From NCBI GenBank assembly GCA_038064535.1, contig JBBTSX010000005.1, positions 13,051-77,050 of the forward strand: DNA of 64,000 nucleotides, read 5' to 3'. The notes under the pieces were generated by a model. The model saw only the letters and a list, made by a program, of their open reading frames with translations. It was not told where the DNA came from and did no database searches. The stretch's first letter is position 1. Each line of letters starts with the position of its first letter. Positions 1,797-61,808 of the stretch are shown here, in pieces. Made by a program: the position numbers and the translations under genes. This DNA is from Patescibacteria group bacterium. Lineage in GTDB: Bacteria > Patescibacteriota > Minisyncoccia > Phycocordibacterales > UBA2100.

Positions 1797-2585
1797 AGAC
1801 TCGGACAGCACTTCTTGAAACACGGCTGGGCCGCGCGTTCGCTCGCATACGCCGCCGCCATCCGTGATGGAGAAACATTTCTTGAAATAGGTCCCGGCAA
1901 GGGAATCCTGACCAAAGAACTGCTCACTCTCGGGCCTGTCGTCGCAGTAGAGAAAGACGAAATGCTCGTCGGACAATTGAAAGAAACTTTTGCCGAGGAC
2001 ATTGCGAGCGGGCGGTTGCGACTCGTTGCCGGCGACGTGCGCGATGCGACGCCGGAGAATCTCGGGCTTACCAAGTATGTGGTGGCGGCGAATATTCCGT
2101 ACTACATCACCGGTGAAATTATCCGGCAATTTCTGACGACTACGATACAACCGCGCGCCATGGCACTGCTTGTGCAAAAAGAGGTTGCACAACGTATCAT
2201 CGGTCACCCCTCGACTGCGCTCGGGGTCACGAAAGAGAGTATTCTCTCTCTTTCCGTGAAAGCGTACGGCACACCGCGACTTGTGGAAAAAGTTTCGCGC
2301 ACGCATTTCTCACCGCCGCCCTCGGTTGATTCTGCGATACTCGCCATCACTGACATCTCGAAAAAATTCTTTGACACCATATCGGAAGAAGACTTCTTCC
2401 GTGTGGTGCGCGCGGGATTTGCTTCCAAAAGAAAGATGCTTGCGAACAATCTCTCGGTGATATTCGATAAAGCTCGCGTGAACGAGTCACTACTCGCGTG
2501 CGACATCTCTGCGAAAGCACGGGCGGAGAATGTGCCGCTTGAGAAGTGGAAATCTATAACTCAACTACTGCTCGGTCACAGATAA
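1770..2585 (+). CDS. rsmA: 16S rRNA (adenine1518/1519-N6)-dimethyltransferase RsmA/KsgA
   Basis: LGQHFL and ANIPYYIT motifs with Rossmann GPGKG. N-terminal ARRASNGAR is an unusual extension encoded by a palindromic repeat arm. Confidence 0.9.
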   Translation: MARRASNGARLGQHFLKHGWAARSLAYAAAIRDGETFLEIGPGKGILTKELLTLGPVVAVEKDEMLVGQLKETFAEDIASGRLRLVAGDVRDATPENLGLTKYVVAANIPYYITGEIIRQFLTTTIQPRAMALLVQKEVAQRIIGHPSTALGVTKESILSLSVKAYGTPRLVEKVSRTHFSPPPSVDSAILAITDISKKFFDTISEEDFFRVVRAGFASKRKMLANNLSVIFDKARVNESLLACDISAKARAENVPLEKWKSITQLLLGHR

Positions 2586-2711
2586 TTTCCTCGCCGTCGC
2601 GGGAAAAACATATGGCTCGGCTACAACTCTCGCCGCGCCGTCGCGCGGCTCGGTCGCAGCCCCACCTCGCGGCGCCGCAAGCTTGCGGCGCATCGCTCCG
2701 GTCGACAAGCC

Positions 2712-2745
2712 AAGTACAAAAAGCTGCGCAGGCAGCTTTTTGTTA
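2712..2745. terminator. bidirectional terminator-like palindrome CAAAAAGCTGCGCAGGCAGCTTTTTG
   Basis: Perfect hairpin with flanking A and T runs between rsmA (+) and the small minus-strand gene. Confidence 0.55.
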
Positions 2746-18049: not shown

Positions 18050-19399
18050 ATGACGACAAACAGAGAATTATGGCAAAATGCGCTCGTTCAGATCGAATTG
18101 GGAACATCGCAGGCATCGTTCCGCACGTGGTTCAGGAACACCGACATCGCCTCGCGCGATACGGGCACCGTCCAGGTGGCTGTCCCGTCAAAAATCGTGA
18201 AAGAATGGCTCATGGAGAAGCACCACAAGCTCATACTGAAGGCGCTCCGCGGTCTCGACAACACCGTACGAACCGTTGAGTACGTCGTGCACCGCACACC
18301 ACCTTCGGCAGAGCGTAAGGTGCCGCGTCCTCAGCCGGCGGAAAATGCTTCATTCGATCTTCAGTCTCTTTATATAGACAAGCGCGACAATTTAAACCCG
18401 AGGTATACGTTCGAAACCTTCGTCGTGGGTCCGTTCAACCAACTCGCGCACGCAGCGGCAAAGGCCGTGCTCGAACGACCGGGTCTTGCATACAATCCGC
18501 TTTTCATCTATGGGCAAACCGGCCACGGTAAGACGCACCTCATCCAAGCGGTAGGGAACTATTTCAAAAAATCGCACGCAAACAAAAAAGTGCTGTATGT
18601 TACCTCGGAGCGGTTTGCCGTTGATTACATTAATTCGGTGCGCGCGGGTCGCGCCAACAGCTTCAAAGACCAGTACCGGCAGTACGACGTACTCATCATG
18701 GACGACGTGCAGTTCATCGCCAACACGGAAAAGACACAGGAGGAATTGTTTCACCTGTTCAACGCGCTTCACGACAACAACAAGCAAATCGTGTTCTCCA
18801 GCGACAAGCACCCGACACTGCTCCCCGGATTTGAAGACCGGCTCAAAGGGCGCTTCTCGGCCGGCATGATAGCGGAGATACCGGAGCCGGACGTGGAGTC
18901 GAGAATTGCCATAATTAAAGCCAAGATAGAGCAACACGGCTTCTCGCTTCCCGACGACATCATCCAGTACATCGCCGAGAACGTGCGCGGCAACATCCGC
19001 GAGCTTGAGGGTGCACTCAATATGATTGTCTGCAAGTCACAGCTCAAAGGCAAGGCGATATCGCACGCCGACGTGCGCGCGCTCATCAAACACAACGTGA
19101 AGCCAAACAGGGGTGTCTCCGTTGACGAAGTGGTACGGAGAATCGCGCAGTACTACGAGATACCGGAGAAGAGCATCTACGAGAAGACCCGTAAGAAGGA
19201 GGTGGTGAAACCGCGCCAGATTATTATGTACATGTTGCGCGAAGAATTCAGTGTCTCGTACCCCTCGATAGGGGAGAAGCTCGGTGGACGCGACCACACG
19301 ACGGTCATTCACTCGTGTGAAAAAATAAAAGAGGAGTTGAAAATGAACAATTCGCTTGAGCAGGAGATCGACCACATCCGCACACTCATTCACGCATAA
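18050..19399 (+). CDS. dnaA: chromosomal replication initiator protein DnaA
   Basis: AAA+ Walker A GQTGHGKTHL. Box VII and C-terminal DNA-binding helix GGRDHTTVIHSCEKI. Confidence 0.95.
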   Translation: MTTNRELWQNALVQIELGTSQASFRTWFRNTDIASRDTGTVQVAVPSKIVKEWLMEKHHKLILKALRGLDNTVRTVEYVVHRTPPSAERKVPRPQPAENASFDLQSLYIDKRDNLNPRYTFETFVVGPFNQLAHAAAKAVLERPGLAYNPLFIYGQTGHGKTHLIQAVGNYFKKSHANKKVLYVTSERFAVDYINSVRAGRANSFKDQYRQYDVLIMDDVQFIANTEKTQEELFHLFNALHDNNKQIVFSSDKHPTLLPGFEDRLKGRFSAGMIAEIPEPDVESRIAIIKAKIEQHGFSLPDDIIQYIAENVRGNIRELEGALNMIVCKSQLKGKAISHADVRALIKHNVKPNRGVSVDEVVRRIAQYYEIPEKSIYEKTRKKEVVKPRQIIMYMLREEFSVSYPSIGEKLGGRDHTTVIHSCEKIKEELKMNNSLEQEIDHIRTLIHA

Positions 19400-19638
19400 T
19401 GTCGCCGATAACCCTGTGGACAAACCCTGCGTAGAGCACTCACAACACACCGAACAACATCATGATAACTTCACCAAACAGTATCCGGAGTGAGTTGTCC
19501 CCGTTCTCTGCACATTTCGCACATCAGTTCTCAACAGTTCAAAATATCCAAACCACCTAATCAAACATTCACTTTAATTCACTTCTCCACATTATCCCCA
19601 GTACTAATAGAAGTAATAGTATTTAAATAAGAAAAGGT
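19400..19638. promoter_or_regulatory. oriC-like region between dnaA and dnaN: degenerate DnaA boxes (TGTGGACAA, TTATCCCCA, ATATCCAAA) and an AT-rich unwinding-element-like stretch at 19600-19640
   Basis: One-mismatch DnaA boxes plus TAATAGAAGTAATAGTATTTAAATAAGAAAAGG immediately before dnaN. Confidence 0.5.
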
Positions 19639-20736
19639 ATGAAGATAATAACAACAAAAGAAAAAATTCTAAACACCATTCTTATGGCAGAGAGAGTTAC
19701 GGGAAAAAAAGAGTCTCTTCCTGTTCTTGCTTGCATTTTCGTTGAAGCCGCAAAAGATATTACCCTCCGCGCGACGAATCTCGAGGCAGGCTTCGAATCA
19801 GTGGTGCCGGGAGAAGTTGGTGAAGTGGGGGCCGTTGCGGTACCGGCCGCCATCCTTTCACAAACGATACGCTCAATCGGCAGTGACAAGGTCGCCTTTT
19901 CTACCGATGATTCGAATCTCCTCGTGGAGTCACGGGGGACCAAAACACTCATAAAAGCGATACCACACGACGAGTTTCCTGCGTTACCGAAAAGCGCCGG
20001 GAAGAATAAAATTTCTCTTTCACGCGAGCGACTTATACACGGGATACAGGCGGTTTGCTACGCCGCTTCACCATCAATGATTCGTCCCGATCTTGGCTCT
20101 GTATACCTTTCGATCAAGGACGGTGCGATGGTATGTGTCGCGACCGACTCGTTCCGTTTGGCCGAGAAAACAGTGAGTGAAAGCGGTGCCAAGGCCGAGG
20201 GCGACGTGCTTATCCCCTTGAAGCACGCGCTCGAGCTTGTGCATATTCTCGAACACGCCGGTGACGACTCGGTGTCGCTCTCCGCCGAAGAATCACAGCT
20301 ATCGGTTTCGGCCGGGGGCATGCGTTACGTGTCCCGCGTGGTGGATGCGACGTTCCCGAACTACAAAGAAATTATTCCGAAAAAATTTACGACCGAGGCG
20401 ACGGTACTCAAAGGCGACCTCGTTGAAATGTTACGCAAGGCGCGTGTGTTTGCGGGGAACGACATGCACGTGGGTCTCCACATTTATCCGAAGAAGAAAA
20501 TATTTTCCGCGCTCGCACGCAGCTCCGATGTGGGAGAAATGTCCGACTCAATCGATGCGGCGCTCTCCGGCGAGGACCTCGACATCAATTTCCATATCGG
20601 CTACATCGCCGACTGTCTCTCATCCGTAGAATCCGATTCCGTGACACTCGGTTTTGCCGGTGCCGGTAAACCACTCGTCATCCGCGGCGTCTCCGATTCC
20701 TCTTTTCTCTATCTCGTCATGCCGCTGAACCGGTAA
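19639..20736 (+). CDS. dnaN: DNA polymerase III beta sliding clamp
   Basis: 365 aa directly after dnaA; clamp-like three-domain length. Confidence 0.9.
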   Translation: MKIITTKEKILNTILMAERVTGKKESLPVLACIFVEAAKDITLRATNLEAGFESVVPGEVGEVGAVAVPAAILSQTIRSIGSDKVAFSTDDSNLLVESRGTKTLIKAIPHDEFPALPKSAGKNKISLSRERLIHGIQAVCYAASPSMIRPDLGSVYLSIKDGAMVCVATDSFRLAEKTVSESGAKAEGDVLIPLKHALELVHILEHAGDDSVSLSAEESQLSVSAGGMRYVSRVVDATFPNYKEIIPKKFTTEATVLKGDLVEMLRKARVFAGNDMHVGLHIYPKKKIFSALARSSDVGEMSDSIDAALSGEDLDINFHIGYIADCLSSVESDSVTLGFAGAGKPLVIRGVSDSSFLYLVMPLNR

Positions 20737-47687: not shown

Positions 47688-47722
47688 AAAACACCTGCCG
47701 CAGGGCAGGTGTTTTTGTCTTT
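47688..47722 (+). terminator. intrinsic terminator ACACCTGCCGCAGGGCAGGTGT + TTTTGTCTTTGTGG
   Basis: Hairpin plus a T-rich tail 17 nt after the stop of the 45947 gene. Confidence 0.65.
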
Positions 47723-47853
47723 GTGGTCACACATAATTTTCTGCTGAAAATTTGCGCGACCCCGGCTCGCGGTTTTGCCTGCTGGCAAAACATCGCTCCG
47801 CCTCGCACAAAAGCAGAAAACCTGGCCGTTGTGGCAGGTGTTTCTATCTTTTG

Positions 47854-47926
47854 TGCGCCCGGTTGGAATCGAACCAACGACCCTCTGCTTAAAAGGCAGG
47901 TGCTCTACCGACTGAGCTACGGGCGC
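47854..47926 (-). tRNA. tRNA-Lys (anticodon TTT)
   Basis: Cloverleaf folded by hand: acceptor GCGCCCG/CGGGCGC, anticodon loop CTTTTAA, T-loop GGTTCGATTCC. Confidence 0.85.
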
Positions 47927-52332: not shown

Positions 52333-53091
52333 ATGCTGAAAGAACTGCAGGACATGGGACTTTCGGAAAAAGAGGCGCGTGTCTACCTCGCCGCTTTGGA
52401 ATTGGGCCAGACGACGGCCGAGAAACTCGCGAAACACGCCAAGGTCAACCGCTCAACGACCTACGTGCAGCTCGAATCGCTCATGAAAATGGGCCTCATG
52501 AGTACGCATGAAGAGGGCAAGAAAACGATGTTCGCTCCCGAATCACCCGAGCTCCTCAAGCGTCTTCTCCTCAAGCAGAGGGACGAGGTCAGCATGAAAG
52601 AGAGCCATCTTGTGGAGCTCTTGCCCGCGCTTTTACAGCAATACGAAGGTGCAGGGGAGCGCCCAGTGGTACGGTTCTTCCCTGGTAAAGAGGGGATTGC
52701 AACGGTGCGTGAGGAGGTTTTGAGTACGAAAGATAAACAACTGTACGTGATAATGTCCTCCGATAATATGTCAAAACTATTCACTGAAAAAGAGCTTGAT
52801 GGGTATACCGCAAGACGAACGGCTCTCAATATAAGTTCGAAGGCCATTTATACGCACCGCGGCTATTTCGACCAGGCCGGAGCCGACGCACTTACCGAGC
52901 ACCGCTTCCTGCCCAATCTCCCGCTCACTATCGATATCCGCATATTCGACGACAAAACTGCGCTTTTCTCGCTGCAGGGTGCACTTTTTGCGATGGTTAT
53001 CGAGAGCAAGCAAATCGCTTCAAGTATGAAAATGATATTCAATCTCCTGTGGAATCAGGGTGAGCGTTCGAAGAAAGACGCGAAAAGATAA
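52333..53091 (+). CDS. TrmB-family transcriptional regulator
   Basis: N-terminal HTH GLSEKEARVYLAALELGQTTAEKLAKHAKVNRSTTYVQLESL. Confidence 0.7.
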   Translation: MLKELQDMGLSEKEARVYLAALELGQTTAEKLAKHAKVNRSTTYVQLESLMKMGLMSTHEEGKKTMFAPESPELLKRLLLKQRDEVSMKESHLVELLPALLQQYEGAGERPVVRFFPGKEGIATVREEVLSTKDKQLYVIMSSDNMSKLFTEKELDGYTARRTALNISSKAIYTHRGYFDQAGADALTEHRFLPNLPLTIDIRIFDDKTALFSLQGALFAMVIESKQIASSMKMIFNLLWNQGERSKKDAKR

Positions 53092-53445
53092 AAAGAATGT
53101 CGGGGACGTGTTACGGCCCCCGACGACGCTTCTCAACTTGCTAGCACCACGTGGCTAGCGGTGGCTCCGCAGAGGAGCCAAAAAGTGACAACGACTTCTG
53201 CAGCTAGTCGCCGCCGAACAGCCACGGTTGCTTCGTTTCCTGTGCCATGATGTCCCCGCCGATGATCGCCGGGACGCACAGGGTGGGAAGCAGCGTGGCG
53301 GTCTGATATTTCATCAGGTCCTCCATTGCCGACTTACGAGCCTGAGAATTTGCGGCAGGCCCTGTATAACCGCATCGAGGACAAGAAAGAACACCTCGAT
53401 ACCAAGAGACTATCATAGTCAAAGTAAATTGACAACTTATGTGTC

Positions 53446-53532
53446 TGTGGATAACGGTATTTGTTATACGATACTGATGTTTCTATATGTCAAATAGGGC
53501 TCTATTTAGAGCCAAAATGGACTTATCCACAC
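53446..53532. promoter_or_regulatory. pair of perfect, inverted DnaA boxes (TGTGGATAA at 53446-53454; TTATCCACA at 53524-53532) in an AT-rich non-coding island
   Basis: Exact consensus 9-mers about 70 bp apart, followed by a perfect 20-bp palindrome CTGTCAACGCGCGTTGACAG at 53538-53557. Confidence 0.5.
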
Positions 53533-53684
53533 AACAACTGTCAACGCGCGTTGACAGAAATACAACTGGGTATAAAGTGCAGATGTCTATGAATAATAAC
53601 AACAAAGCACCGCCGTAGGTTCTAGGTTGTCAGTGTTCAGGGACAGGTCGAAATTACAAGGTTTGTATAGAGAAAAGACGGATT

Positions 53685-53980
53685 ATGACAAAAGATAACG
53701 GGCCGCCGAGCGATGGGAAGGAAGAGGAGGGGAAGGAAGAGGAAAAAGAAAGTGAGAAAGAAGAGTTGGGAGGCAGGGGGGATTAATCAACTAACAGCAT
53801 CAGTATGGAACAAAGTAAGAATCATGGGCCGCCGGAAGGAGAAGCGTGAGGATGAATTATCAACATAACAAGAATCGATATGAAAGGAGGAAGAGGTAAG
53901 CCATCTGGTGACGGAAACGACTAATATGGACACCAGTGGGATACATGGGCCGCCGGACGCCCACGAAGAAAATCGTCCGA
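53685..53980 (+). repeat. about 2.5 degenerate tandem repeats of roughly 120 bp, each containing (A/T)GGGCCGCCG(G)A and a purine-rich tract. In one frame they encode short acidic peptides sharing H/N-G-P-P-(E/D/S).
   Basis: Core copies at about 53697, 53824 and 53945. Tiny ORFs MTKDNGPPSDGKEEE..., MEQSKNHGPPEGEA, MDTSGIHGPPDAHEENRPTPR. Confidence 0.45.
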
Positions 53981-53981
53981 C

Positions 53982-54056
53982 ACCGAGGTAGCTCAACGGG
54001 CAGAGCATCAAGTTCGGAACTTGACCGCGGAGGTTCGATTCCTCCCCTCGGAACCA
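53982..54056 (+). tRNA. tRNA-Pro (anticodon CGG), CCA encoded
   Basis: Cloverleaf by hand: D-arm GCTC/GAGC, anticodon loop TTCGGAA, T-arm GGAGGTTCGATTCCTCC, 3' CCTCGGA-A-CCA. Position 1:72 is an A.A mismatch. Confidence 0.75.
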
Positions 54057-54059
54057 AAA

Positions 54060-54096
54060 ACAGAAAACACCTCTTGGGAGGTGTTTTCTGTTTTTC
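54060..54096 (+). terminator. intrinsic terminator AGAAAACACCTCTTGGGAGGTGTTTTCTGTTTTTCC
   Basis: Perfect hairpin followed by a T-run immediately after tRNA-Pro. Confidence 0.75.
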
Positions 54097-54292
54097 CGCG
54101 AGGGAGCGAGACATCTGCATGTCTCGCGTGGGGATTCGAACGCCGGAGCGATGTGCGGCGAGCTCGCCGCACCGCGCGTCGGTGCCCAGACAAAGCTGCG
54201 CGTCGGCGCGGTTTTAGTCGAGGGAGAATCCTCGCCTGGCTATGCGAAGCACAGTATCCGTGACCGGATCCTCCCCTCGGAACAAAATGTGT

Positions 54293-54883
54293 TCAAGAAA
54301 CTTTTTTAACTATCAAGAGACCAAGCTCCTTTCCGAATTTCGACGACATTGCGCGGTCAAGCATGGCGAGGTCGACAGTAAGACGCTGTTTTCTTGTAGG
54401 TTTTGGGTCTACGAGGACAGCCGTCCGGGATTGCAGGTCGACGGACTCAACAAGAGCGTCATGTATGCGTGCCACAGACTCCTTCCCTGCATGGATTTCG
54501 TGCGAATGATACTCGACCCAGACGTCCTCGTTATATTTGATATGTTCCGCGATGAGATTCGAGAGACCTCGTATCTCGGAGTGCATATGCGCCTCAAGCG
54601 TGAGGCCGATGTTTTTACTTTTGAGCAACGCGTTGATTGTGTCACAAGAATTGACCGTGGAAATTCCCTCGTCGAAGTTGAAACGCGTCATGATAGGCAT
54701 GTCGACGCGGAATGCGTTTACGTCATCAAGACCAATCTTGGCGCCGAGTTGTATTGCCAAGTCCTCTTGGTCGTACAGGCCGAATCCGCCGCGATAGAGA
54801 ACCATCTGCAAACATGCAGCCGCACAACATTTCGGTTTTTGTACCAGCGGAATATACCTGGGATTCAAAGTAATCGCGCTCAT
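54293..54883 (-). CDS. papain-like cysteine peptidase, C39-like (bacteriocin-processing peptidase family-like)
   Basis: QKPKCCAAACLQMVLYRGG resembles the C39 catalytic Cys motif (Q...CGAACL). Lower-GC gene between two tRNAs. The opposite-strand ORF 54242..54949 is judged spurious. Confidence 0.45.
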   Translation of the reverse strand: MSAITLNPRYIPLVQKPKCCAAACLQMVLYRGGFGLYDQEDLAIQLGAKIGLDDVNAFRVDMPIMTRFNFDEGISTVNSCDTINALLKSKNIGLTLEAHMHSEIRGLSNLIAEHIKYNEDVWVEYHSHEIHAGKESVARIHDALVESVDLQSRTAVLVDPKPTRKQRLTVDLAMLDRAMSSKFGKELGLLIVKKVS

Positions 54884-55010
54884 GAAATCGGTGCGCGAAT
54901 CGTAGCATCCTTCAGAAGTGCAGCAATTCATTCCGTCAAAATCTCCTGACGTTTTGAGCAGCTAAAATGCGGCGCTCGTAAAGAGAGAGAATGTATAGTA
55001 TTCTCTCCTT

Positions 55011-55072
55011 GTTTCTCGTTCGCTCCCGTAAGCATAGCTTTCGGAAGCGTCAGTCGGGAGAAATGAAAGCAA
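55011..55072 (+). pseudogene. mini pseudo-tRNA: duplicate of the tRNA-Arg 5' flank and acceptor (CTCGTTCGCTCCCGT) and 3' acceptor and flank (CGGGAGAAATGAAAG), with the tRNA body replaced by about 26 nt
   Basis: 15-nt and about 15-nt direct repeats of the ends of the tRNA at 55095-55166, located 75 bp upstream. Confidence 0.5.
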
Positions 55073-55094
55073 GCTTTCGTTTCGTCCCTCGTTC

Positions 55095-55166
55095 GCTCCC
55101 GTCGTTCAATGGATAGGACGCATCCTTGCGGAGGATGCAATGTAGGTTCGATTCCTACCGGGAGCA
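55095..55166 (+). tRNA. tRNA-Arg-like (anticodon read as GCG)
   Basis: Acceptor GCTCCCG/CGGGAGC, anticodon arm CATCC-TTGCGGA-GGATG, T-arm GTAGGTTCGATTCCTAC. The GCG anticodon is unusual for bacteria. Confidence 0.6.
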
Positions 55167-55249
55167 ATGAAAAGAAAAGGACTTTGCTTTTCATCCGATT
55201 CTGCGAAGCAGAAAACGCCGATGTCGAGCGTAGCGAGACTGGCGTTAGG

Positions 55250-55285
55250 GTGACGCACAAGACCTGCCCTGCGGCAGGTTTTCTG
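55250..55285 (+). terminator. intrinsic terminator ACCTGCCCTGCGGCAGGT + TTTCTGCTTTTGTG
   Basis: Hairpin plus T-rich tail downstream of tRNA-Arg. Same stem family as the terminators at 47688 and 47826. Confidence 0.6.
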
Positions 55286-55506
55286 CTTTTGTGCTGGGCG
55301 GAGCGATGCCGAGCCAACGGGCGAGGCCGCGAGCCGGGGCCTGCGACCGAGCTTTGCGACGGCAAAGCGAGAGTCGTGGGCCACTGTGTGCTGGGCGGAG
55401 CGTTGTGAGGCAAGCGTGCCGAACCGTGATCCGAGGTCGGGGAATTTTGATTGCGACGGCAATCAAAATATCCGTGACCACAAACAGCTACAGAGAAGAA
55501 TACTTA

Positions 55507-55540
55507 ATAACAAACTTGTCCGACCGGACGAGTTTGTTAT
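55507..55540. repeat. 34-bp palindromic repeat ATAACAAACTTGTCCGACCGGACGAGTTTGTTAT, left copy flanking the PaaX-like gene
   Basis: Near-identical copy at 56150-56183 (one mismatch). Confidence 0.8.
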
Positions 55541-55554
55541 GTTACGATGGGCCC

Positions 55555-56145
55555 ATGGGCATTGAGAAGCGGGTGGCCGTGCGCGCTCGCAGGGGCGAGA
55601 TCAAAAATGCCGTTCTTCAAGTTGCAGCTCTCGCTGGGTTACTTTCTATTGCTTTTGTCGCCCCCAATGTGCCAAAAGTTATTCCACGAAGCCTGCTTAA
55701 TAAGGTGTTTGGTCGCTCGCGGAGTGCAAGAGACGTGACCGTGAGTCGTTTGCTGAAGGATGGATTGCTTGCGGTGGAAATGCGCGATGGTACGCGGATG
55801 TTACGCATAACCGAGAAAGGGAAGCGATATCTCGCAAAAACAAAGTTACGCGCCGCGAATGTGCCGCGGCGGTGGGACCGTCGATGGCGCGTTGTCATAT
55901 TCGACATCAAGGAGCATAGGCGGCATGTTCGTAGGAATTTAAGAAGTGAGCTTCAGGCGTATGGATTCTACCGATTGCAGGACAGCGTATGGGTGTTCCC
56001 ATATGCGTGTGAGGATTTTATCGCGCTTCTCAAGGCCGACCTACATGTCGGAAAGGATATTTTGTATCTTGTGGCCGAGGAGGTCGAAAACGAGCGTCAT
56101 TTGAGAGATTATTTTGGCATAGGAACTGGCGGCCGCTCTGCATGA
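55555..56145 (+). CDS. PaaX-family-like transcriptional regulator
   Basis: C-terminal WDRRWRVVIFDIKEHRRHVRRNLRSELQAYGFYRLQDSVWVFP resembles the PaaX_C fold. Start re-picked at MGIEKR inside ORF 55291..56145. Confidence 0.55.
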   Translation: MGIEKRVAVRARRGEIKNAVLQVAALAGLLSIAFVAPNVPKVIPRSLLNKVFGRSRSARDVTVSRLLKDGLLAVEMRDGTRMLRITEKGKRYLAKTKLRAANVPRRWDRRWRVVIFDIKEHRRHVRRNLRSELQAYGFYRLQDSVWVFPYACEDFIALLKADLHVGKDILYLVAEEVENERHLRDYFGIGTGGRSA

Positions 56146-56149
56146 GGAA

Positions 56150-56183
56150 ATAACAAACTTGTCCGACCGGACAAGTTTGTTAT
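56150..56183. repeat. 34-bp palindromic repeat ATAACAAACTTGTCCGACCGGACAAGTTTGTTAT, right copy
   Basis: Perfect 14-bp arms; direct repeat of 55507-55540. Confidence 0.8.
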
Positions 56184-56338
56184 AAGGGTACGGGTGACGG
56201 TGAGAGATGGTTAGAGGTTGGGAATGTGTTCGGAGTTGGCGGCGCGGTGTGGCAGGGGTGGAAAGCGGGTAAGTTGGAATTGTCGAGGCTCAAAGAGTCC
56301 GTTTTTCCACATTTCGCGCAGTTATTCGCATTGCACAG

Positions 56339-58984
56339 ATGGCCTGCGGGGCGCATCATGGCGATATGTACGCGTTTTTCAGCCGCGGCCTGCCTGTGCG
56401 TATGCAACGCACGCAGACAGGCTCTTCAGTCCTTGCCGCACTGGTGCTTGTCGGAGGCCTCGCCGTTGCCACACTCGCCGTGCAGGCCCTTTCGGGCCCG
56501 CAGAATTCTCAAGCACAAAGTGCTCAGGTGGCCGTACCTATCGTACCGCCGGTGGTTAGAGTCGCCGCTCCACGCATCACGTCACGCTCACCCGCTACGT
56601 GCAAAGATGCAATAGAGGCGGCTATGAAAGAGAAGCGTAGCGAAGACCCGGAGGCAGAAAGTTATACCAATGGAAAATCGGGAGTCCTCGACAAGTGCTA
56701 CGGAGCGATAATAAAAACCGGCAAAGACCCCGCCAAGGCAACGGCGGCTGATTACAACTGCACAGGCAGATTCGGTTACGCAGATGTTACAAGAAGGTCA
56801 GTGTCTGTCGTTACCAAACCGGACCCCAAAAACATACTAAAGGCGGGAGCGAAGGGTAGCTGCAAAATCACCATTTGTGAATATTTAGCGGAAGATGACG
56901 CCCATAAGTGCGGGCCGGCAAAAGTATTCGAGGGGGGGATAACGCTCCCAACGGAGCTTACGCCGAGAAGCAGTGTCGACGAGGTTGCGAGCAGTTTGAA
57001 GAACGATGCAGGTAAGCTTCCAACGCTGACGGGAAATCCCACCGACGCGGCGGCGATAAGCAGAGTTTTTGGTGAGGCGACACCGGAAGAAATCAAGGCC
57101 ATTGATGACGACCTGAAGAGACAGACAGCTAATTTGCAGGAGCTAGAGAAGTACGTAGGCGACTGCACTAAAGCGGGGGAAACGGATGGTTGTGGCCCAG
57201 GTAAGGACCAGACTCTCGAACAGCTCACTAGAGAGAGAGATGCGGCCGCCGCACTAGAGGCTGAATTGAAACAACAGTCCGATGCCCTCAAGCTGTCGCA
57301 AACACAGGATTTGACGTCGCTGTATAAGGACTGTAGTGGTTCCGACTGTATTGCAGTTGCCTATAAGCCGGAAGATGTCGCGGCGCTCAAAAAGGATGGT
57401 TATGAATGCGGAAGTCCGGAGTCGGATGGAAGTATTGCGTGCTACAAAGACAAGGCTTCCACACCTGACCCAAGCAAAGACTATTGGGTTCAACAGCGAG
57501 ACGGTCAGTGGTGCAATCAGAAGGCGGAATGCAGGCCGGCGTCGACGTTTACTCCGCCGCCCAAACAGTCAACAGGATGCACGGGTCCGAACTGCGACAA
57601 GGGAGGTGGCGGTGGAGGAGGGGGTGGAGGCGGACAACAGCAGACACCCGAGAAGCCAGGCGGTGGTGGCGGTGGAGGATTCAACGACATCATGAAAGCG
57701 ATTTTGGGCGGACTGGCAAAAGGTCTCGCGCAGGGGCTCGCACAACAGCCGGCGCAAGCGTGCCCGTCGGACCCCAATGCATATGCGCAACAACAACAGC
57801 AATACAATCAGCAGATGCAGCAATACAACTACCAGCTCCAGCAGTTCAACTACCAACAGCAGTTGAGCTACATGAACGGCATGCCCGCTCCGACTCCTCC
57901 GATTGCACCGCAGCCATGCACGCCGAACTCAAACTCCAATACATGCTCGGCCGCACCTGCGCAACCTAATCCGGCGGGATGCACCAATGGCACATGGAGA
58001 CCGATAACAACTCAGCAGGGCAACGGTTATCAGTGCACCTCGGGTTGGCAGTGCGTGCCGGGGGGCGGCACCGTGCCCACGGCACAGATTTCCTGCAGTC
58101 CCAAAGTCGCCGACGTCGGCATGACGGTCACTATCGCGTACGGATGCGGCAACGCGACAGGCAGTACCGGTCAAGGATTCGACACGAATAATCAGTTGTC
58201 CGGTTCGACTACCACTGTCATCACGGCGCCGCCGGCGGGAGCGACCGGTGCAAACTTCGAACTGAATTGCACCAATCAGGGGGCATCGAAACGGGCACAG
58301 TGCACCGTGCAGATTGGGCGCCCGACCATCGTGCTAGTCGCCAATCCCAAGGTCGTTGACCCGGGCAAGGCATCGACCATCGGCTGGATAACGAGCGGTA
58401 TGCAATCGTGTGTCGTCTCCAGTCCCGAGGATGGCGCGTTTACCGCCGAGAACGCGACCAACACAAGCGTCAACGGCATGGCGAGCACATCGCCGCTCAC
58501 ATCTCCGATTCATATACTTCTGCACTGCGTCACCATAGGCGGCGGCACGCGCGATGCGACGACCACGGTGAGTGTCGTCGGACAACCGGATATCGACGAC
58601 CAGGATCCGAATAGCGGCACGGTGACGGTCCGGTCGACTGCCGACGGGGAGTCCACTTCCCGCGGTAGCACGGTCACCGTATCGTGGAATGCGACAAACC
58701 CGCCCTCGGGCGCGCACATCGCACTCTGGCTCTACGACGTGCGCCTCAACACGACGACCGCGCTCATCGCCGACGACCTCGCCGCAAGCAGTACCTATGC
58801 GTGGCACCTGCCGAACGCCAATAGCACATGTGACCCGGAGTCCATCGATGTCTGTGGCGCAGACCTTGTGCCGGGCAGGCAGTATGGCATCGAAGCCGAC
58901 CTCTATACCGACACTTCCGACCCGAATAACCCCAACATCGTTGATTACGGGTTTACGCCCGAGCCGTTCACAATAAGCAGTTAA
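56339..58984 (+). CDS. large secreted protein with poly-Gly and poly-Gln tracts and C-terminal beta-rich repeats; family member 3 of the Gly-run secreted proteins
   Basis: TM/signal anchor. G13 and G7 runs. FNDIMKAILGGLAKGLAQGL helix motif shared with the 44499 and 45947 ORFs. Q-rich QQQQQYNQQMQQYNYQLQQFNYQQQ. Confidence 0.6.
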   Translation: MACGAHHGDMYAFFSRGLPVRMQRTQTGSSVLAALVLVGGLAVATLAVQALSGPQNSQAQSAQVAVPIVPPVVRVAAPRITSRSPATCKDAIEAAMKEKRSEDPEAESYTNGKSGVLDKCYGAIIKTGKDPAKATAADYNCTGRFGYADVTRRSVSVVTKPDPKNILKAGAKGSCKITICEYLAEDDAHKCGPAKVFEGGITLPTELTPRSSVDEVASSLKNDAGKLPTLTGNPTDAAAISRVFGEATPEEIKAIDDDLKRQTANLQELEKYVGDCTKAGETDGCGPGKDQTLEQLTRERDAAAALEAELKQQSDALKLSQTQDLTSLYKDCSGSDCIAVAYKPEDVAALKKDGYECGSPESDGSIACYKDKASTPDPSKDYWVQQRDGQWCNQKAECRPASTFTPPPKQSTGCTGPNCDKGGGGGGGGGGGQQQTPEKPGGGGGGGFNDIMKAILGGLAKGLAQGLAQQPAQACPSDPNAYAQQQQQYNQQMQQYNYQLQQFNYQQQLSYMNGMPAPTPPIAPQPCTPNSNSNTCSAAPAQPNPAGCTNGTWRPITTQQGNGYQCTSGWQCVPGGGTVPTAQISCSPKVADVGMTVTIAYGCGNATGSTGQGFDTNNQLSGSTTTVITAPPAGATGANFELNCTNQGASKRAQCTVQIGRPTIVLVANPKVVDPGKASTIGWITSGMQSCVVSSPEDGAFTAENATNTSVNGMASTSPLTSPIHILLHCVTIGGGTRDATTTVSVVGQPDIDDQDPNSGTVTVRSTADGESTSRGSTVTVSWNATNPPSGAHIALWLYDVRLNTTTALIADDLAASSTYAWHLPNANSTCDPESIDVCGADLVPGRQYGIEADLYTDTSDPNNPNIVDYGFTPEPFTISS

Positions 58985-59135
58985 CGGGTGCGTAAAAAAC
59001 TCGGCTGCATCGTTGCGTCTCCTTACAGGAGCGGTACACCTTTTGGATATTTTCTTCGCAGGAGCTCGAAAATACCTCAAAAGGTCTTGCGGAAGCTCCG
59101 TGTATTCGCTTCCTCACCTCGCGTCGTTCATTCAC

Positions 59136-59675
59136 CTAGAGCCCGAGGAACTCGAGGATTTTGTGCGGGAGCGGCTCTTTCATGTGCCGCTCTTCCGCAT
59201 GCTCTTTGAGGTAGCTGCGAATCTCGCGCGGGTCGACGTGTTCAATCGGAATGATGAGATTGGGCGCGAGGATTTTTGTGGTGTCGACGAGCAGAAGCGG
59301 ACGGTGGTGCGGATGTTCGTCCTCCACCCAGAAGGCGATAATCTCGCGATAGCGATGCAAGGTGCCGTTGATGCGGATGCCGCGGTCGGAAATCTCGAAT
59401 TGCGTGATGTCCGGCGCCTGCCGCGACTGCAGTGCGATGGTAATCGCCGCGACGAGAATCAGAATCGCAAAAAGGACGTCGTGAAAGAGAATGCTCGTGA
59501 CGGCGATGGACACAGCAACGATACCGAGTGCCAAATACCAGTCACTTCCGCGCTCGACATGTTCGTGCTCATACGCACTCCAATGCAAAACTACGTTCTG
59601 GTTGGGCATGTAGGATATTGTATCGCGTTTCCAGTGAATATCTTCCAGATATAGAGCAATTTGCTTGTGGTACAC
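59136..59675 (-). CDS. hypothetical membrane protein (two TM helices plus a bacterial PH-like C-domain?)
   Basis: 179-aa ORF; hydrophobic pair LALGIVAVSIAVTSILF / AILILVAAITIAL. Confidence 0.4.
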   Translation of the reverse strand: MYHKQIALYLEDIHWKRDTISYMPNQNVVLHWSAYEHEHVERGSDWYLALGIVAVSIAVTSILFHDVLFAILILVAAITIALQSRQAPDITQFEISDRGIRINGTLHRYREIIAFWVEDEHPHHRPLLLVDTTKILAPNLIIPIEHVDPREIRSYLKEHAEERHMKEPLPHKILEFLGL

Positions 59676-60168
59676 TGGATGGATGGCTGAGCGGTATAAA
59701 AGAAATCCGAACGTGAACTGTTTTGTCTGCCATAAACCCGTATACAGACGACCGTCTCTGCTCAGAGCCAGTAGTGGTCGAGCGTTTTGTGGGCAGCTTT
59801 GCTATGGCATTTCACAAAGAATAGAAACGCCGTGTATCGTTTGCGGTTCGCCAATTGTCGCCAGCAAGAACGCACAGACCTGTAGCAGGGCGTGCGCCAA
59901 CAAACATAGAGCAGGTATTAAATATAAAATTGGTCGACCGCGGGACAAGGTCGTGAGAGAACGCTCTATGAAGATTCGACTTATTGAGCAGCGAGGTGCG
60001 AAATGTGAACGATGCGGCTATAGCAAGGTTGAAATATTGCATGTGCATCACAGAGACAGAAACCGGAAAAATAATACATTAGAGAATTTGGAGTTGGTTT
60101 GTCCGAATTGCCACTACGAGGAACATTATTTAGAAAAAAGCTGGCTTAGTGATACTGTAAACGATTGA
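59665..60168 (+). CDS. HNH endonuclease with an N-terminal Cys-rich zinc-finger-like region
   Basis: CERCGYSKVEILHVHHRDRNRKNNTLENLELVCPNCH is a canonical HNH motif. AT-richer than its surroundings; abuts tRNA-Ser. Confidence 0.7.
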   Translation: MWYTGWMAERYKRNPNVNCFVCHKPVYRRPSLLRASSGRAFCGQLCYGISQRIETPCIVCGSPIVASKNAQTCSRACANKHRAGIKYKIGRPRDKVVRERSMKIRLIEQRGAKCERCGYSKVEILHVHHRDRNRKNNTLENLELVCPNCHYEEHYLEKSWLSDTVND

Positions 60169-60172
60169 ACAG

Positions 60173-60257
60173 GGAGGGGTGGCTGAGCGGTCTAAAGCAC
60201 CGGTCCTGAAAACCGGCGTGGGGAAACCCACCGTGAGTTCGAATCTCACCCCCTCCG
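60173..60257 (+). tRNA. tRNA-Ser (anticodon TGA), type II with long variable arm
   Basis: Acceptor GGAGGGG/CCCCTCC, D-arm GCTGAGCGGTCTAAAGCAC, anticodon arm CCGGT-CCTGAAA-ACCGG, variable stem GCGTGGGGAAACCCACC, T-arm GTGAGTTCGAATCTCAC. C at position 33. Confidence 0.75.
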
Positions 60258-60261
60258 CACG

Positions 60262-60292
60262 TGATGCAAAGATACCCCGCACGGGGTATTCT
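60262..60292 (+). terminator. intrinsic terminator AGATACCCCGCACGGGGTATTCTTTGTG
   Basis: Hairpin plus T-rich tail after tRNA-Ser. Confidence 0.65.
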
Positions 60293-60387
60293 TTGTGTCA
60301 CGAGGACGAGATTCGAAAGGCGGAGGCCGTAGGCCGAGCCAGGGCAGTGAGCACTTAGCGAGTGAAACAAGCTTAGTGACTCACGCC

Positions 60388-60406
60388 GAATCTCACCCCC
60401 TCCGCA
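60388..60406 (+). repeat. 19-bp exact direct repeat of the tRNA-Ser 3' end (GAATCTCACCCCCTCCGCA)
   Basis: Identical to 60241-60259; 128 bp downstream, ending 1 nt before the riboflavin kinase ATG. Confidence 0.85.
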
Positions 60407-60407
60407 T

Positions 60408-60746
60408 ATGCATTCTTTTACCGGTATTGTTCAACGGAGCTCAAAGCGGGCGACTGCACTTGGATATCCGACGGTGAACATTCCCTTGGGCGACGATTCT
60501 TCCGGCGTGTATGCGGCACGTGTTTTTGTCGACGACCGAGTCTACCGTGCGGCGGCATTTGCCGACCCGAAGCGCAAAATACTCGAAGCGCACATCGTGG
60601 ATTTCGAGGGTGACTTGTACAACAAAGAGGTAACTATTGAGCTTGTAAGGAAACTCCGTGATACGCAGACATTTGATACAGACGCAAAATTGCGGACGGC
60701 AATAGCGGACGACATTGCAAAAGTCCGGGAATACTTTAAGAATTGA
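60408..60746 (+). CDS. riboflavin kinase (stand-alone RibF C-terminal-domain homolog)
   Basis: ALGYPTVNI ... EAHIVDFEGDLYNKEVTIELVRKLRDTQTFD pattern of the riboflavin kinase domain; 112 aa. Confidence 0.7.
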   Translation: MHSFTGIVQRSSKRATALGYPTVNIPLGDDSSGVYAARVFVDDRVYRAAAFADPKRKILEAHIVDFEGDLYNKEVTIELVRKLRDTQTFDTDAKLRTAIADDIAKVREYFKN

Positions 60747-60749
60747 GCA

Positions 60750-61331
60750 ATGTTTACCGGAATCGTTGAGCGACAGGGCCGAATACGCGCTGTTTCGGGC
60801 ATCAAGAACAAGCGCTTTACGGTAGAGAAACCGGTTTCTTGGAAGTTGAAGACAGGTGCCAGCGTCGCCGTCGACGGCATCTGCGTGACGGTAACGTCTC
60901 ATACAAAGAATTCGTTTTCGTGCGACCTGATGCCCGAAACGCTCTCACGTACAACTGCGAGACAATTCCGTGTCGGCGCTACGGTGAATCTCGAACGGCC
61001 GTTAAAACTCGGCGACGAGCTCGGCGGGCACATCGTGCTCGGGCATGTTGATGTGCGGGGAAAGATTATGCGAGTCTACAAACGCGGCACTGCGCGCGAA
61101 GCGACCGTTTCAGTTCCGGCACGTTTTATGCGACTCGTAGCTGAAAAAGGCTCAATCGTTCTCAACGGAGTCTCGCTCACCGTATCAAAGAAGCAACGGA
61201 ACACGTTTGCGGTCGCGCTCATTCCGCACACACTCAAGGCGACGAACCTCGGTTCATTGCAGAAAGGTGACGGGGTAAATGTCGAATTTGACGCGACAAT
61301 GCGATATCTGGCAGCACGCAAAAAAAAGTGA
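60750..61331 (+). CDS. ribE: riboflavin synthase (alpha subunit)
   Basis: MFTGIVE... internal duplication with GHIVLGHVD / NGVSLTV lumazine-binding repeats. Confidence 0.85.
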   Translation: MFTGIVERQGRIRAVSGIKNKRFTVEKPVSWKLKTGASVAVDGICVTVTSHTKNSFSCDLMPETLSRTTARQFRVGATVNLERPLKLGDELGGHIVLGHVDVRGKIMRVYKRGTAREATVSVPARFMRLVAEKGSIVLNGVSLTVSKKQRNTFAVALIPHTLKATNLGSLQKGDGVNVEFDATMRYLAARKKK

Positions 61332-61343
61332 TACCGTGCGCTC

Positions 61344-61808
61344 ATGCAACGCAAAGAATTTCTGAAAAAAACAGCACCGCGCGATGCCTCGAAACTCAGC
61401 ATCGGCATCGTTGTCGCGGAATTCAACCCTGATATCACGGGAAGTTTGTTCGAGGGTGCCTTGAAAGCGCTCAAAGAGTGGGGCGTAAAGGAACGCAATA
61501 TCAATATATTTCGCGTGTACGGCTCGTTTGACCTCACGTACGGGTGTGACCTCATGTTTCGCAAGCATAAGCCGGATGCGGTAGTCGCACTCGGTTGCAT
61601 CATCAAAGGGGAGACCAATCACGACCACTACATTGCTTCGGCCTTGTCGCACGGACTTACCGGCCTCGCCATCAAGTACGGCAAGCCCGTTTCGTTCGGC
61701 GTTATCACGACCAATAATCTCGCGCAGGCAAAAGCGCGTTCGCGCGGCAAGACAAATCACGGCGAGAAGGCCGCTGTCGCCGCGCTCCAGGCGGCACTTT
61801 TGAAGTAG
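61344..61808 (+). CDS. ribH: 6,7-dimethyl-8-ribityllumazine synthase
   Basis: [20 protein letters not shown] ... [17 protein letters not shown] typical RibH. Confidence 0.88.

Follow-up and report, generated by a model that had tools for sequence, protein, structure and literature searches.

The 64,000-nt stretch of contig JBBTSX010000005.1 (Patescibacteria group bacterium, assembly GCA_038064535.1) analyzed here, hereinafter the window, harbors a family of short, folded, non-coding units that follow each of its four tRNA genes. An earlier note on this DNA had interpreted the interval from tRNA-Pro to tRNA-Ser as an integrative island, possibly decayed, with a duplication of the tRNA-Ser 3′ end as the scar of an integrase attachment (att) site. 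We find that the duplication is real and reject the single-island interpretation. Rather, the interval probably combines a conserved gene backbone, lineage-variable cargo in two slots and small non-coding modules trailing the tRNAs; judged by its sequence context, the 20-bp tRNA-Ser repeat appears to be the right-hand edge of one such module. The modules themselves are most likely ancient, target-duplicating insertions that have been kept under selection for the folding of their sense strand.

Structured units behind the tRNAs of the window

ARAGORN recovers four tRNAs in the window, with Rfam supporting those for Pro, Arg and Ser, the three that the earlier note had listed. As it had also reported, the 3′ end of tRNA-Ser is exactly duplicated; the repeat spans 20 nt (60240-60259 and 60387-60406), the chance of a 19-mer recurring within 300 nt is about 1e-9, and the 127 nt between the copies are themselves one member of a structured repeat family. 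A comparable duplication had been overlooked: the 3′ end of tRNA-Pro (54040-54058) recurs 213 nt downstream at 54269-54287 with 18 of 19 positions matching. When the intergenic pieces were compared by BLAST, the trailers of tRNA-Arg were found to resemble those of tRNA-Lys as well as the tRNA-Lys and tRNA-Arg trailers of two other contigs, L085 and L087 (L numbers are our labels for the loci compared). A covariance model (CM), described below, detects a family member behind every one of the four tRNAs and six copies in the 64 kb.

The modules are built from a hairpin (T0), an antisense stretch (X′) of the 3′ region of the tRNA that they follow, and a two-domain core, to which a direct copy (X) of the tRNA 3′ end is added in the units that we term type B. 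The tRNAs of the window and the elements associated with the family are as follows:

2570-2712, minus strand: unit behind a protein-coding gene (CM hit 2619-2712, 58.4 bits)
47720-47812, minus strand: type-A unit behind tRNA-Lys (CM 89.6 bits), outside the segment of the earlier note
47853-47926, minus strand: tRNA-Lys(ttt) (ARAGORN), outside that segment
53982-54056, plus strand: tRNA-Pro(cgg), intact (ARAGORN; Rfam tRNA 59.8 bits)
54056-54095, plus strand: hairpin T0 behind tRNA-Pro, with 18-nt arms that are 100% complementary and A- and T-runs like those of a bidirectional terminator
54094-54268, plus strand: type-B unit behind tRNA-Pro (CM hit 54132-54230, 49.8 bits, E=1e-9)
54269-54287, plus strand: direct copy X of the tRNA-Pro 3′ end, TCCTCCCCTCGGAAC plus flank (18/19; 15/15 in the X alignment), directly before the stop codon of the peptidase gene
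55095-55166, plus strand: tRNA-Arg(gcg) (ARAGORN, Rfam), part of the conserved backbone
55167-55286, plus strand: probable degenerate unit remnant ending in GGGTGACGCACAAG, then terminator hairpin T0 ACCTGCCCTGCGGCAGGTTTT (terminator-like site 55259-55282)
55287-55383 and 55384-55484, plus strand: type-A tandem units behind tRNA-Arg (CM 62.8 and 103.2 bits)
60173-60258, plus strand: tRNA-Ser(tga), intact (ARAGORN, Rfam)
60260-60302, plus strand: long hairpin T0 behind tRNA-Ser, inner stem GATACCCCGCACGGGGTAT (terminator-like site 60271-60290)
60308-60386, plus strand: short, diverged type-B unit behind tRNA-Ser (CM hit 60309-60392, 24.3 bits, E=6e-5 with filters off)
60387-60406, plus strand: exact 20-nt copy X of the tRNA-Ser 3′ end from C56, abutting the flavokinase start codon

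Type-B units are ordered tRNA, spacer hairpin T0, X′, core and X. In these, X′ is the reverse complement of the T-loop and the 3′ strand of the T-stem of the unit's own tRNA, extending over 9-19 nt and always ending in ..TCGAA, and X is a direct copy from C56 to the tRNA's 3′ end. This copy covers at least 17 nt from C56 with at most one mismatch in 12 of the 13 type-B cases, with matches of 19/19 for tRNA-Ala (L195) and tRNA-Gly (L177), 20/20 for tRNA-Tyr (L188), and 19/19 for tRNA-Ser of the window; for tRNA-Pro of the window the match is 15/15. The tRNA-Pro unit has split and degenerate antisense copies of the tRNA 3′ part (TTCCGCGAGGGAG at 54094 and GGGGATTCGAA at 54130), with a core that includes CGGAGCGATG and hairpins and ends in GTATCCGTGACC. 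The tRNA-Ser unit starts with GAGATTCGAA, which matches the T-loop and the 3′ strand of the T-stem of tRNA-Ser in reverse complement, and in its predicted fold GAGAUUC closes with GAAUCUC (z = -7.3 for 60259-60406). We also considered X′ and X together as a full acceptor/T minihelix for RNase P and discarded this, X′ usually comprising T-loop and T-stem only (10-13 nt). At tRNA-Ser(cga) of L175 (4570-5120, minus strand), two identical short units and one different full unit stand in tandem, each ending in X, a pattern that is expected if the regenerated target is reusable.

In type-A units, which follow tRNA-Lys, tRNA-Arg(gcg), tRNA-Val(cac) and tRNA-Ile, the complement of X′ spans the final 4-6 nt of the tRNA and the first bases of the trailer, the tRNA end lies within a long hairpin around T0, and the unit ends in GTGACCACAA. 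The trailers of tRNA-Lys vary across genomes (AAAAGA, ATGACC, AACAAT), and X′ varies to match. The hairpin T0 behind tRNA-Arg recurs behind tRNA-Lys and in L085, and units related to the window's tRNA-Arg(gcg) pair follow tRNA-Arg(gcg) in L085, L087, L168, L242 and L290. The unit at 2.6 kb trails a protein-coding gene, so the family is not strictly tRNA-dependent; within 2570-2745 (minus strand), the final 12 nt of that gene, whose stop codon lies at 2743-2745, recur in reverse complement as the 5′ flank of the unit, TACTTGGCTTGTC.

Conservation of the fold and distribution of the family

Members of the family are about 95-140 nt long and share CGGAGCGATG, a hairpin, CCGCGAG..GGG, a long hairpin with a GACG loop, and ATCCGTGACC; written as RNA, the core runs CGGAGCGAUG, hairpin, CCGCGAG..GGG, long hairpin, GUGACC. 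An alignment of six copies (MAFFT/RNAalifold) yields a two-domain fold with compensatory changes in 18 of its 32 pairs. The covariance model built from the members of this alignment then retrieved 33 hits in 21 loci, with E-values as low as 1e-24. Across the 33 hits, 93% of the cells are paired, whereas shuffling gives 66% and sliding the partners gives 30-40%; both sides change in 31 of the 32 pairs, and the covariation score is 0.54 against 0.15, a value reached by none of 500 shuffles, although these counts come from a model-fitted alignment that leans towards the model structure. The six-sequence result is free of that bias. A conserved G.U pair, present in 21 of 27 sequences, places the fold on the tRNA-sense strand.

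Rfam 15 yields only tRNAs at E<=1 over 51-62 kb of the window and nothing credible at E<=10 on two short unit-bearing stretches, and no comparable family was found in the literature that we searched. Accordingly, this tRNA-trailing structured repeat family is apparently undescribed. Kink-turns, box C/D elements, hammerhead and hairpin ribozymes, and the 5′ ends and domain V of group II introns were compared with the core by eye and none fits, in line with the lack of an Rfam match; the TIGR-Tas arrays (PMC12045711) differ in architecture. The palindromes flanking the PaaX-like gene of the interval (see below) were likewise rejected as members, scoring just 7-9 bits.

A motif-pattern scan of metagenomes returned 80 loci, 18 of them with model hits (one of these, L209, proved to be a false positive), and all 74 motif-pattern loci in viral contigs were chance matches devoid of a covariance-model hit. 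About 27 of the 33 units lie directly or in tandem behind a tRNA on the same strand (ARAGORN and inspection), usually beginning 35-85 nt after it; of the remainder, two are cut by contig ends and four have no nearby tRNA. The tRNAs followed by units are those for Ala, Arg (two anticodons), Glu, Gly, Ile, Leu, Lys, Pro, Ser (three), Tyr and Val (two).

Empty sites, age of the copies and a possible mode of insertion

Contigs encoding homologues, at 68-75% identity, of the HNH protein encoded next to tRNA-Ser were scanned for tRNAs and served for comparison with the window. In L287, the intact tRNA-Ser(tga) directly abuts the ATG of the orthologous flavokinase gene (..CCTCCGC/ATG), constituting an empty site, and the distal copy X of the window has the same junction (..CCTCCGCAT/ATG). 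The tRNA-Ser(tga) of L085, L089 and L286 also has no unit, which is lacking in six of the seven genomes. Similarly, L288 and L289 present empty sites in which tRNA-Pro(cgg) is followed by a terminator overlapping the stop codon of the peptidase gene; in the window T0, the unit and X are found between tRNA-Pro and that stop codon. The window hence equals the state of its relatives plus 147 bp at tRNA-Ser (the 127 nt between the repeats and one 20-nt repeat copy) and about 230 bp at tRNA-Pro, each addition being bounded by repeats. As read from the junctions, both insertions appear equivalent to an entry between T-loop positions 55 and 56, with a replacement 3′ end keeping the tRNA intact.

The units of the window are at most about 60-74% alike, as against 78-81% among the tRNA-Arg(gcg) units of L085, L087, L168 and L242, and the nearest relatives of most units are units in other genomes. 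This combination of low identity within a genome and higher identity behind the same tRNA suggests that the copies are old and partly inherited at orthologous positions. The maintenance of helices by compensatory change in such old copies, in turn, argues for selection on the fold after insertion.

Several points weigh against reading the modules as insertions. The contrast between empty and filled sites could have arisen by precise deletion between the direct repeats in the relatives, although a unit at tRNA-Ser(tga) is missing from six of the seven genomes. Pairwise identities in the model alignment reveal no near-identical copies, and recent mobility is not demonstrated. Neither an integrase, nor a transposase, nor Cas1 is found in the segment, no consistent protein neighbor emerges from more than 12 unit contexts, and we know of no insertion mechanism that copies its target in inverted as well as in direct orientation. 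Type-A units show no clear long target duplication and are preceded by terminator-like hairpins. To these may be added the above-noted lean of the covariation counts and the fact that the taxonomic breadth is drawn from about 20 loci retrieved with a bias towards the motifs.

If the modules did enter as insertions, the process would have duplicated its target and acted on one folded strand, either single-stranded DNA or RNA. One possible scheme starts from a single-stranded circle of the order X, T0, X′, core, in which X would pair with X′ and the hairpin so formed would reproduce the chromosomal target as a duplex; after a single strand exchange at position 55/56 and replication, the product would read tRNA..X, T0, X′, core, X, which is exactly the order observed. 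Such behavior is known from the attC sites of integrons and the attP of CTX phage. Selection for sense-strand folding would have set in after insertion. A more specific version, which we put forward tentatively and regard as rather unlikely, is that the units represent a class of self-target-matching elements, whereby a folded single-stranded DNA or RNA pairs via X′ with the T-loop and 3′ end of a tRNA gene, inserts at 55/56 and regenerates the end. A related possibility is that the units are T-loop intervening sequences, with the tRNA being completed with either of two 3′ ends. To our knowledge, neither self-target-matching insertion nor such a two-ended tRNA arrangement is known in bacteria. 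The HNH protein encoded beside tRNA-Ser is a candidate for the partner enzyme.

Alternatives: a possible role at the RNA level or scars of separate elements

A serious rival or complement to insertion is an action at the RNA level. Under this explanation the units would be host non-coding RNAs co-transcribed with the tRNA, with X′ and X operating in the transcript and any DNA mobility being incidental or ancient; they might support a different folding of the precursor, with the 5′ half of the tRNA pairing with the distal X around an intron-like T-loop insert, or serve in the processing or protection of the 3′ end. We hold this to be possible without favoring it. It would accommodate the strong compensatory covariation, the conserved G.U pair and unpaired motifs, the age of the copies and the likeness of same-tRNA copies across genomes, and the shared strand and close spacing of units and tRNAs. 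Moreover, many type-B spacer hairpins have no U-run and might permit read-through, and the minimum free energy folds of four type-B transcripts (L195 Ala, L177 Gly, L230 Ser and tRNA-Ser of the window) pair the proximal 3′ part of the tRNA with X′ and its acceptor 5′ strand with the distal X, amounting to a tRNA with a large T-loop insert. However, type-A units sit after good terminator-like hairpins, half of the examined tRNAs of L001 are devoid of units (Arg-tct, Val, Leu and His), and the covariance model finds none in 20 kb of L089. Further, one unit trails a protein gene whose end serves as X′, and the predominance of T-loop and T-stem in X′ falls short of a mimic of the full acceptor minihelix.

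It is considerably less probable, and in our estimate very unlikely, that each duplication is the scar of a separate tyrosine-integrase element deleted down to its attP arms, leaving about 130-210 bp. The identity blocks do extend from the T-loop to the tRNA 3′ end, a feature of many integrase attB sites, the integration of Ms6 for example using the T-loop of tRNA-Ala (PMC1762012), and tandem arrays such as that in L175 resemble accretion at att sites. Yet, this explanation would have to account for one conserved family that is spread over at least 11 tRNA specificities and whose hairpins are strand-specific and covary and whose unpaired motifs are conserved, neither of which is expected of double-stranded attP arm sites. 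Repeated decay to the same 95-140 nt is implausible, and no full-length arm-carrying element is present in any locus that we examined or in the viral contigs. The unit trailing a protein gene and the type-A units without a long repeat are likewise hard to reconcile with it.

Comparison with known systems

The units partly resemble tRNA islands of the tyrosine-integrase type, in which 15-20 nt of the tRNA 3′ part, starting in the T-loop, are directly repeated, the inserted DNA supplies a new 3′ end that leaves the tRNA intact, insertion takes place downstream and arrays may form. Unlike such islands, they are non-coding stretches of about 130-230 bp belonging to one covarying folded family that spans many specificities, they carry an inverted copy of the target, and no integrase is seen here or beside the other copies.

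Miniature inverted-repeat transposable elements (MITEs) and REP-like repeats (REP/BIME, ERIC, Correia, RUP and BOX) are short, non-coding, multi-copy, intergenic and strongly folded, often lie just behind genes or terminators, and have no transposase gene of their own. In all these traits our units are like them, with six copies in 64 kb and 33 hits in 21 loci sharing both sequence and fold. They differ in that the unit ends, X′ and X, are built from the neighboring tRNA in place of fixed terminal inverted repeats, the duplication being 15-20 nt rather than short. Also in contrast to MITE/REP-type repeats, the units lie nearly exclusively behind same-strand tRNAs and comprise old copies that have diverged with compensatory changes, with no recent bursts of near-identical ones.

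The attC sites of integrons and the attP of CTX phage, recombined by XerCD, are folded single-strand recombination sites that are strand-specific and conserve structure over sequence. Comparably, the X:X′ hairpin would recreate the target duplex on a single strand. However, the units target tRNA genes and not attI or dif, their core has conserved unpaired motifs, they contain no cassette ORFs (open reading frames), and no IntI or dedicated Xer partner was identified.

In archaea, tRNA introns occur at non-canonical positions in the T-loop, and split tRNAs are known. The predicted fold of the units similarly places a structured insert of about 150-200 nt in the T-loop, and X′ provides pairing between exon and insert. 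Unlike in the archaeal case, an intact tRNA copy always precedes the insert, making splicing unnecessary, the host is bacterial, and neither a splicing endonuclease nor a bulge-helix-bulge motif has been shown for the units.

Finally, casposase integrates next to the T-psi-C loop region of tRNA-Pro with a 15-bp duplication (PMC5137440). The units are like casposons in that the target is set by the tRNA 3′ end and T-loop and in that the duplication is long, 15 bp there as compared to 15-20 nt here. Casposons differ from the units in being large, in encoding Cas1 and a polymerase, in having fixed terminal inverted repeats, and in that their duplicated segment lies beside the tRNA end, while that of the units lies inside the tRNA. 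No Cas1 is seen here, and the Cas2-like domain of the PaaX_M protein is a regulator-family domain.

Gene order in relatives and rejection of a single island

The protein-coding genes and further elements of the interval and its edges are as follows (plus strand unless noted; no strand is given for the palindromes):

52333-53091: TrmB-like regulator gene (Pfam TrmB), outside the segment of the earlier note, opening the TrmB/spacer/tRNA-Pro/peptidase block
54293-54883, minus strand: papain-fold cysteine peptidase gene, 196 aa from the second Met (the longest ORF reaches 54931, 212 aa)
55015-55102: exact duplication of 15 nt of the tRNA-Arg 5′ end, including 7 leader bases (55015-55029 = 55088-55102), with a two-hairpin leader between the copies
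55506-55540: 35-nt palindrome, upstream copy, 14 nt before the start codon of the PaaX-like gene
55555-56145: PaaX_M family gene (winged helix-turn-helix and Cas2-like domains), 196 aa (Pfam PF20803, 3e-19)
56149-56183: 35-nt palindrome, downstream copy, 3 nt after the stop codon of the PaaX-like gene and about 155 nt before the gene of the large protein
56339-58984: secreted protein of 881 aa with poly-Gly and poly-Gln runs (the large protein), backbone
59136-59609, minus strand: small membrane protein of 157 aa, backbone
59683-60168: zinc-ribbon and HNH protein of 161 aa (Pfam HNH), backbone
60408-60746: riboflavin kinase gene (Pfam Flavokinase), start of the second variable slot, followed by ribE and ribH

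In L085, L087, L089 and L286, the order is RuvA (minus strand), S20, tRNA-Arg(gcg), a 690-780-aa protein, a 156-157-aa protein (minus strand), HNH and tRNA-Ser(tga), after which come RuvX, a gene with a tRNA_bind domain and PilM; in three of these (L085, L089 and L286), a CTP-transferase-like gene directly follows tRNA-Ser. L285 matches this order from tRNA-Arg(gcg) through tRNA-Ser, the stretch lying at a contig end, with other genes after tRNA-Ser, and in L287, whose contig begins at HNH, the backbone order is partial. The small membrane protein is 56% identical to its L085 counterpart (E=2e-64) and occupies the same position and strand in the relatives. The large protein aligns with its L085 orthologue over the C-terminal 172 aa at 47% identity (E=1e-42), and an ORF of 690-780 aa stands at its position in five relatives. 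By gene order, the part from tRNA-Arg to tRNA-Ser thus appears to be a conserved backbone of Kaiserbacteria-like genomes. In the window, tRNA-Ser is followed in the 3′ direction by the riboflavin kinase gene, ribE, ribH, the CTP-transferase-like gene and ruvX.

Two slots vary, the first between S20 and the large protein and the second after tRNA-Ser. The first holds tRNA-Arg alone in L087 and L286, a ParE toxin pair in L085, an uncharacterized ORF of 231-252 aa with no homology to the peptidase or the PaaX-like gene in L089 and L285, and the TrmB/tRNA-Pro/peptidase block together with the palindrome-flanked PaaX_M gene in the window. A PaaX_M gene beside tRNA-Arg or S20 is also found on the contig encoding P0148, in the same slot, and in L290, where tRNA-Arg(gcg) adjoins the PaaX-like gene. 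The second slot has no extra gene before the CTP-transferase-like gene in L085, L089 and L286, flavokinase alone in L287, flavokinase with ribE and ribH in the window, and unrelated genes in L087 and L285. The block between S20 and tRNA-Arg in the window, which begins 1.6 kb upstream of the start that the earlier note gave the segment, consists of the TrmB-like gene, about 0.9 kb of spacer, tRNA-Pro(cgg) and the gene for the peptidase. It recurs with an unchanged internal arrangement in L288 and L289 (the TrmB-like homologue of L288 being 75% identical), there standing at another site, between tRNA-Arg(tcg) and tRNA-Gly(gcc) beside the CCA-adding enzyme, and we therefore conclude that it was relocated or inserted in the window.

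These comparisons leave little room for the whole interval from tRNA-Pro to tRNA-Ser being one decayed integrase-type island with the tRNA-Ser 3′ repeat as its att scar, an interpretation that we consider highly improbable. It could invoke the tRNAs at both ends, a 3′-end direct repeat of the usual att length and the location of the three GC3-lowest genes of the window inside the interval (GC3 being the GC content at third codon positions). However, in tRNA-targeting islands the direct repeats delimit the element, which is located downstream of the tRNA (bioRxiv 10.1101/2020.11.02.365908). As both copies of the tRNA-Ser end lie on its downstream side, enclosing just 127 nt, they cannot bound 6 kb upstream, and tRNA-Pro has a separate copy of its own 3′ end. 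The interval is not empty elsewhere, as such an island would predict for relatives; the core order is unchanged in five to six of them and only the two slots vary. The absence of an integrase that the earlier note recorded is borne out: no integrase or recombinase gene or domain was detected with Pfam, NCBIfam and PADLOC in the ORFs of 52.3-60.7 kb.

The composition of the genes points both ways. Among 45 long ORFs of the window (mean GC3 0.642, sd 0.057), the three lowest values indeed belong to the genes for HNH (0.44-0.45), the peptidase (0.55-0.57) and the PaaX-like protein (0.54-0.56), including the two that had been described as low in GC. Nonetheless, HNH has a GC3 of 0.40-0.47 in six of the seven genomes, where the neighboring genes have 0.43-0.63, suggesting that low GC3 characterizes the gene family as such and does not mark a recent import. 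A 24-nt look-alike of the tRNA-Ser 5′ part at the start of HNH (59677-59700, 21/24) was considered as a trace of insertion into a tRNA-Ser copy and rejected as a chance match, because the relatives keep the N-terminal codons (MxERYKR) though their tRNA-Ser D-arms differ. Overall, geometry, synteny and the composition of HNH speak against one element stretching from tRNA-Pro to tRNA-Ser. The fallback offered in the earlier note, several independent insertions at a tRNA hotspot, is partly right in view of the two variable slots, the relocated block and the small modules behind tRNA-Pro and tRNA-Ser.

That the repeats and hairpins are mere chance matches or ordinary terminators without a common origin can be set aside: two-copy repeats of 13-17 nt are common in the region and the look-alike at the HNH start did turn out to be a coincidence, but the probability that an exact 20-mer arises by chance within 150 nt is about 1e-9, the model E-values and shuffles speak for a real family, and the pattern recurs at 13 tRNAs in many genomes.

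Several observations concern the genomes and loci used in these comparisons. The closest RibE relatives (window 60750-61808) among GTDB representative genomes are alphaproteobacterial, at 48% identity or less, ribE and ribH stand next to the CTP-transferase-like gene in only some relatives, and the riboflavin genes may have been horizontally acquired. L287 encodes a large serine recombinase (5294-6841, minus strand) whose gene overlaps tRNA-Arg(tct) at 5312-5386; this is a conventional integrative element unrelated to the trailer units. About 9 kb downstream of the HNH locus of L087, a pair of genes for bAvd and a reverse transcriptase (18927-20356) resembles a diversity-generating retroelement.

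The sequence of the window is also found, identically, in GCA_964357015.1 and in Hainich groundwater assemblies. Contigs L001-L004 are near-identical to it and represent one population, being uninformative on polymorphism. Their assemblies break at window position 54555 in the peptidase gene (L001) and at 60170-60229, at or within tRNA-Ser (L002-L004); such breaks are likely caused by tRNA sequence common to different genomes. The source names of HNH and PaaX_M homologues include Candidatus Kaiserbacteria, Paceibacterota and Patescibacteria.

Genes and small elements of the interval

Most of the features listed in the earlier note are real, with several of their labels needing qualification. 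The cysteine peptidase had been called C39-like. It belongs to a rare family with 17 homologues, in which Q15, C20 and H141-D142 are invariant. Its AlphaFold model (pLDDT 90) has a papain fold, for which the best Foldseek match is the primitive phytochelatin synthase Alr0975 (E=7e-8, TM 0.62-0.65), with the C39 domains 6mpz and 3k8u ranking 13th and 31st. Pfam and NCBIfam gave no C39 match and a PDB profile search gave no peptidase. The C39 label is consequently supported by the modeled fold at the clan level only. In L288 and L289, the peptidase is linked to the TrmB-like gene and tRNA-Pro as in the window.

The spacer between the TrmB-like gene and tRNA-Pro contains a small ORF with GGD repeats in all three genomes (window 53204-53422, minus strand; L288 9205-9471; L289 9190-9324), with the peptides ..AIIGGD..LFGGD*, ILGGDLK..RFGGDMRGIMCGGGDIATQ and DIGGDMKVHTGGDIASQ and no Pfam hit. 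Given the arrangement beside a TrmB-like regulator, this ORF and the papain-fold peptidase may constitute a peptide-plus-peptidase module. Upstream of tRNA-Pro(cgg) there are also four tiny tandem ORFs (window 53517-53991, plus strand) behind a promoter-like site TTGACA..TAAAGT at 53551-53578. Each holds a (G/A)-P-P encoded with CCG-CCG; the peptides are ..MSMNNNNKAPP*, MTKDNGPPSDGKEEE..GGRGD*, MEQSKNHGPPEGEA and MDTSGIHGPPDAHEENRPTPR, the stop codon of the last overlapping the tRNA start. ORFs with NNKGPPK/NNGPP occur in two other genomes (L288 8694-8921 and L289 8766-8897, both minus strand). Since tRNA-Pro(CGG) reads CCG, we suspect leader-peptide control of the tRNA, although the tiny ORFs might also encode peptide substrates.

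The element described in the earlier note as a mini pseudo-tRNA before tRNA-Arg is not tRNA-like by ARAGORN or Rfam. It corresponds to the 15-nt duplication of the tRNA-Arg 5′ end with its two hairpins (leader fold z = -4.15), which is absent upstream of tRNA-Arg(gcg) in seven relatives and occurs in the window only.

The PaaX-like gene scores 69.3 bits against PF20803 (cut-off 24) and belongs to a family of 488 homologues that is common in Patescibacteria. It is not a full-length PaaX, scoring 43.9 bits against the equivalog model TIGR02277 (cut-off 264.6), with 196 aa as compared to the 279 positions of the model. The repeats said to bracket it are confirmed and are palindromic, 35 nt long and 97% identical, with two sites in the window and none in the other loci. 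The PaaX_M homologue of L290 (59% identity) has a 38-nt palindrome pair of another sequence (5956-5993 and 6603-6640), the start-to-start spacing being alike, 643 nt in the window and 647 nt in L290. That each of the two genomes has its own palindrome suggests that the palindrome changes together with the PaaX_M protein. The arrangement would fit a regulator with a putative operator at both ends of its gene and is compatible with the palindrome-flanked gene being a small cassette.

Poly-Gly and poly-Gln runs are present in the 881-aa protein, which had been counted as the third Gly/Gln-rich protein; among the eight longest ORFs it is the sole one with such runs. The HNH gene has the HNH motif (29.4 bits against PF01844, cut-off 21.4), and its family numbers more than 1000 homologues that are 60-85% identical. 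It adjoins tRNA-Ser as noted earlier, stopping 4 nt before it, and in seven of seven genomes (the window, L085, L087, L089 and L285-L287) it either overlaps tRNA-Ser(tga) or lies 0-5 nt upstream, a constancy of position that departs from the sporadic presence of homing endonucleases.

Implications

Flanking tRNAs, low GC and a duplicated tRNA end do not suffice for calling an island, and the position of the repeat and the gene order in relatives should be checked. Whatever their nature, the units described here will confuse tools that search for att sites or islands and will cause breaks at tRNAs in metagenome assemblies. We consider folded, covarying elements of about 100 nt that trail the tRNA genes of ultra-small Patescibacteria genomes to be of more interest than an ordinary island claim. 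If they are insertion modules, tRNA genes would be targeted, and yet left active, in a hitherto unknown way. Should they be RNAs, they would add an unknown layer to tRNA precursor biology in organisms with minimal genomes.

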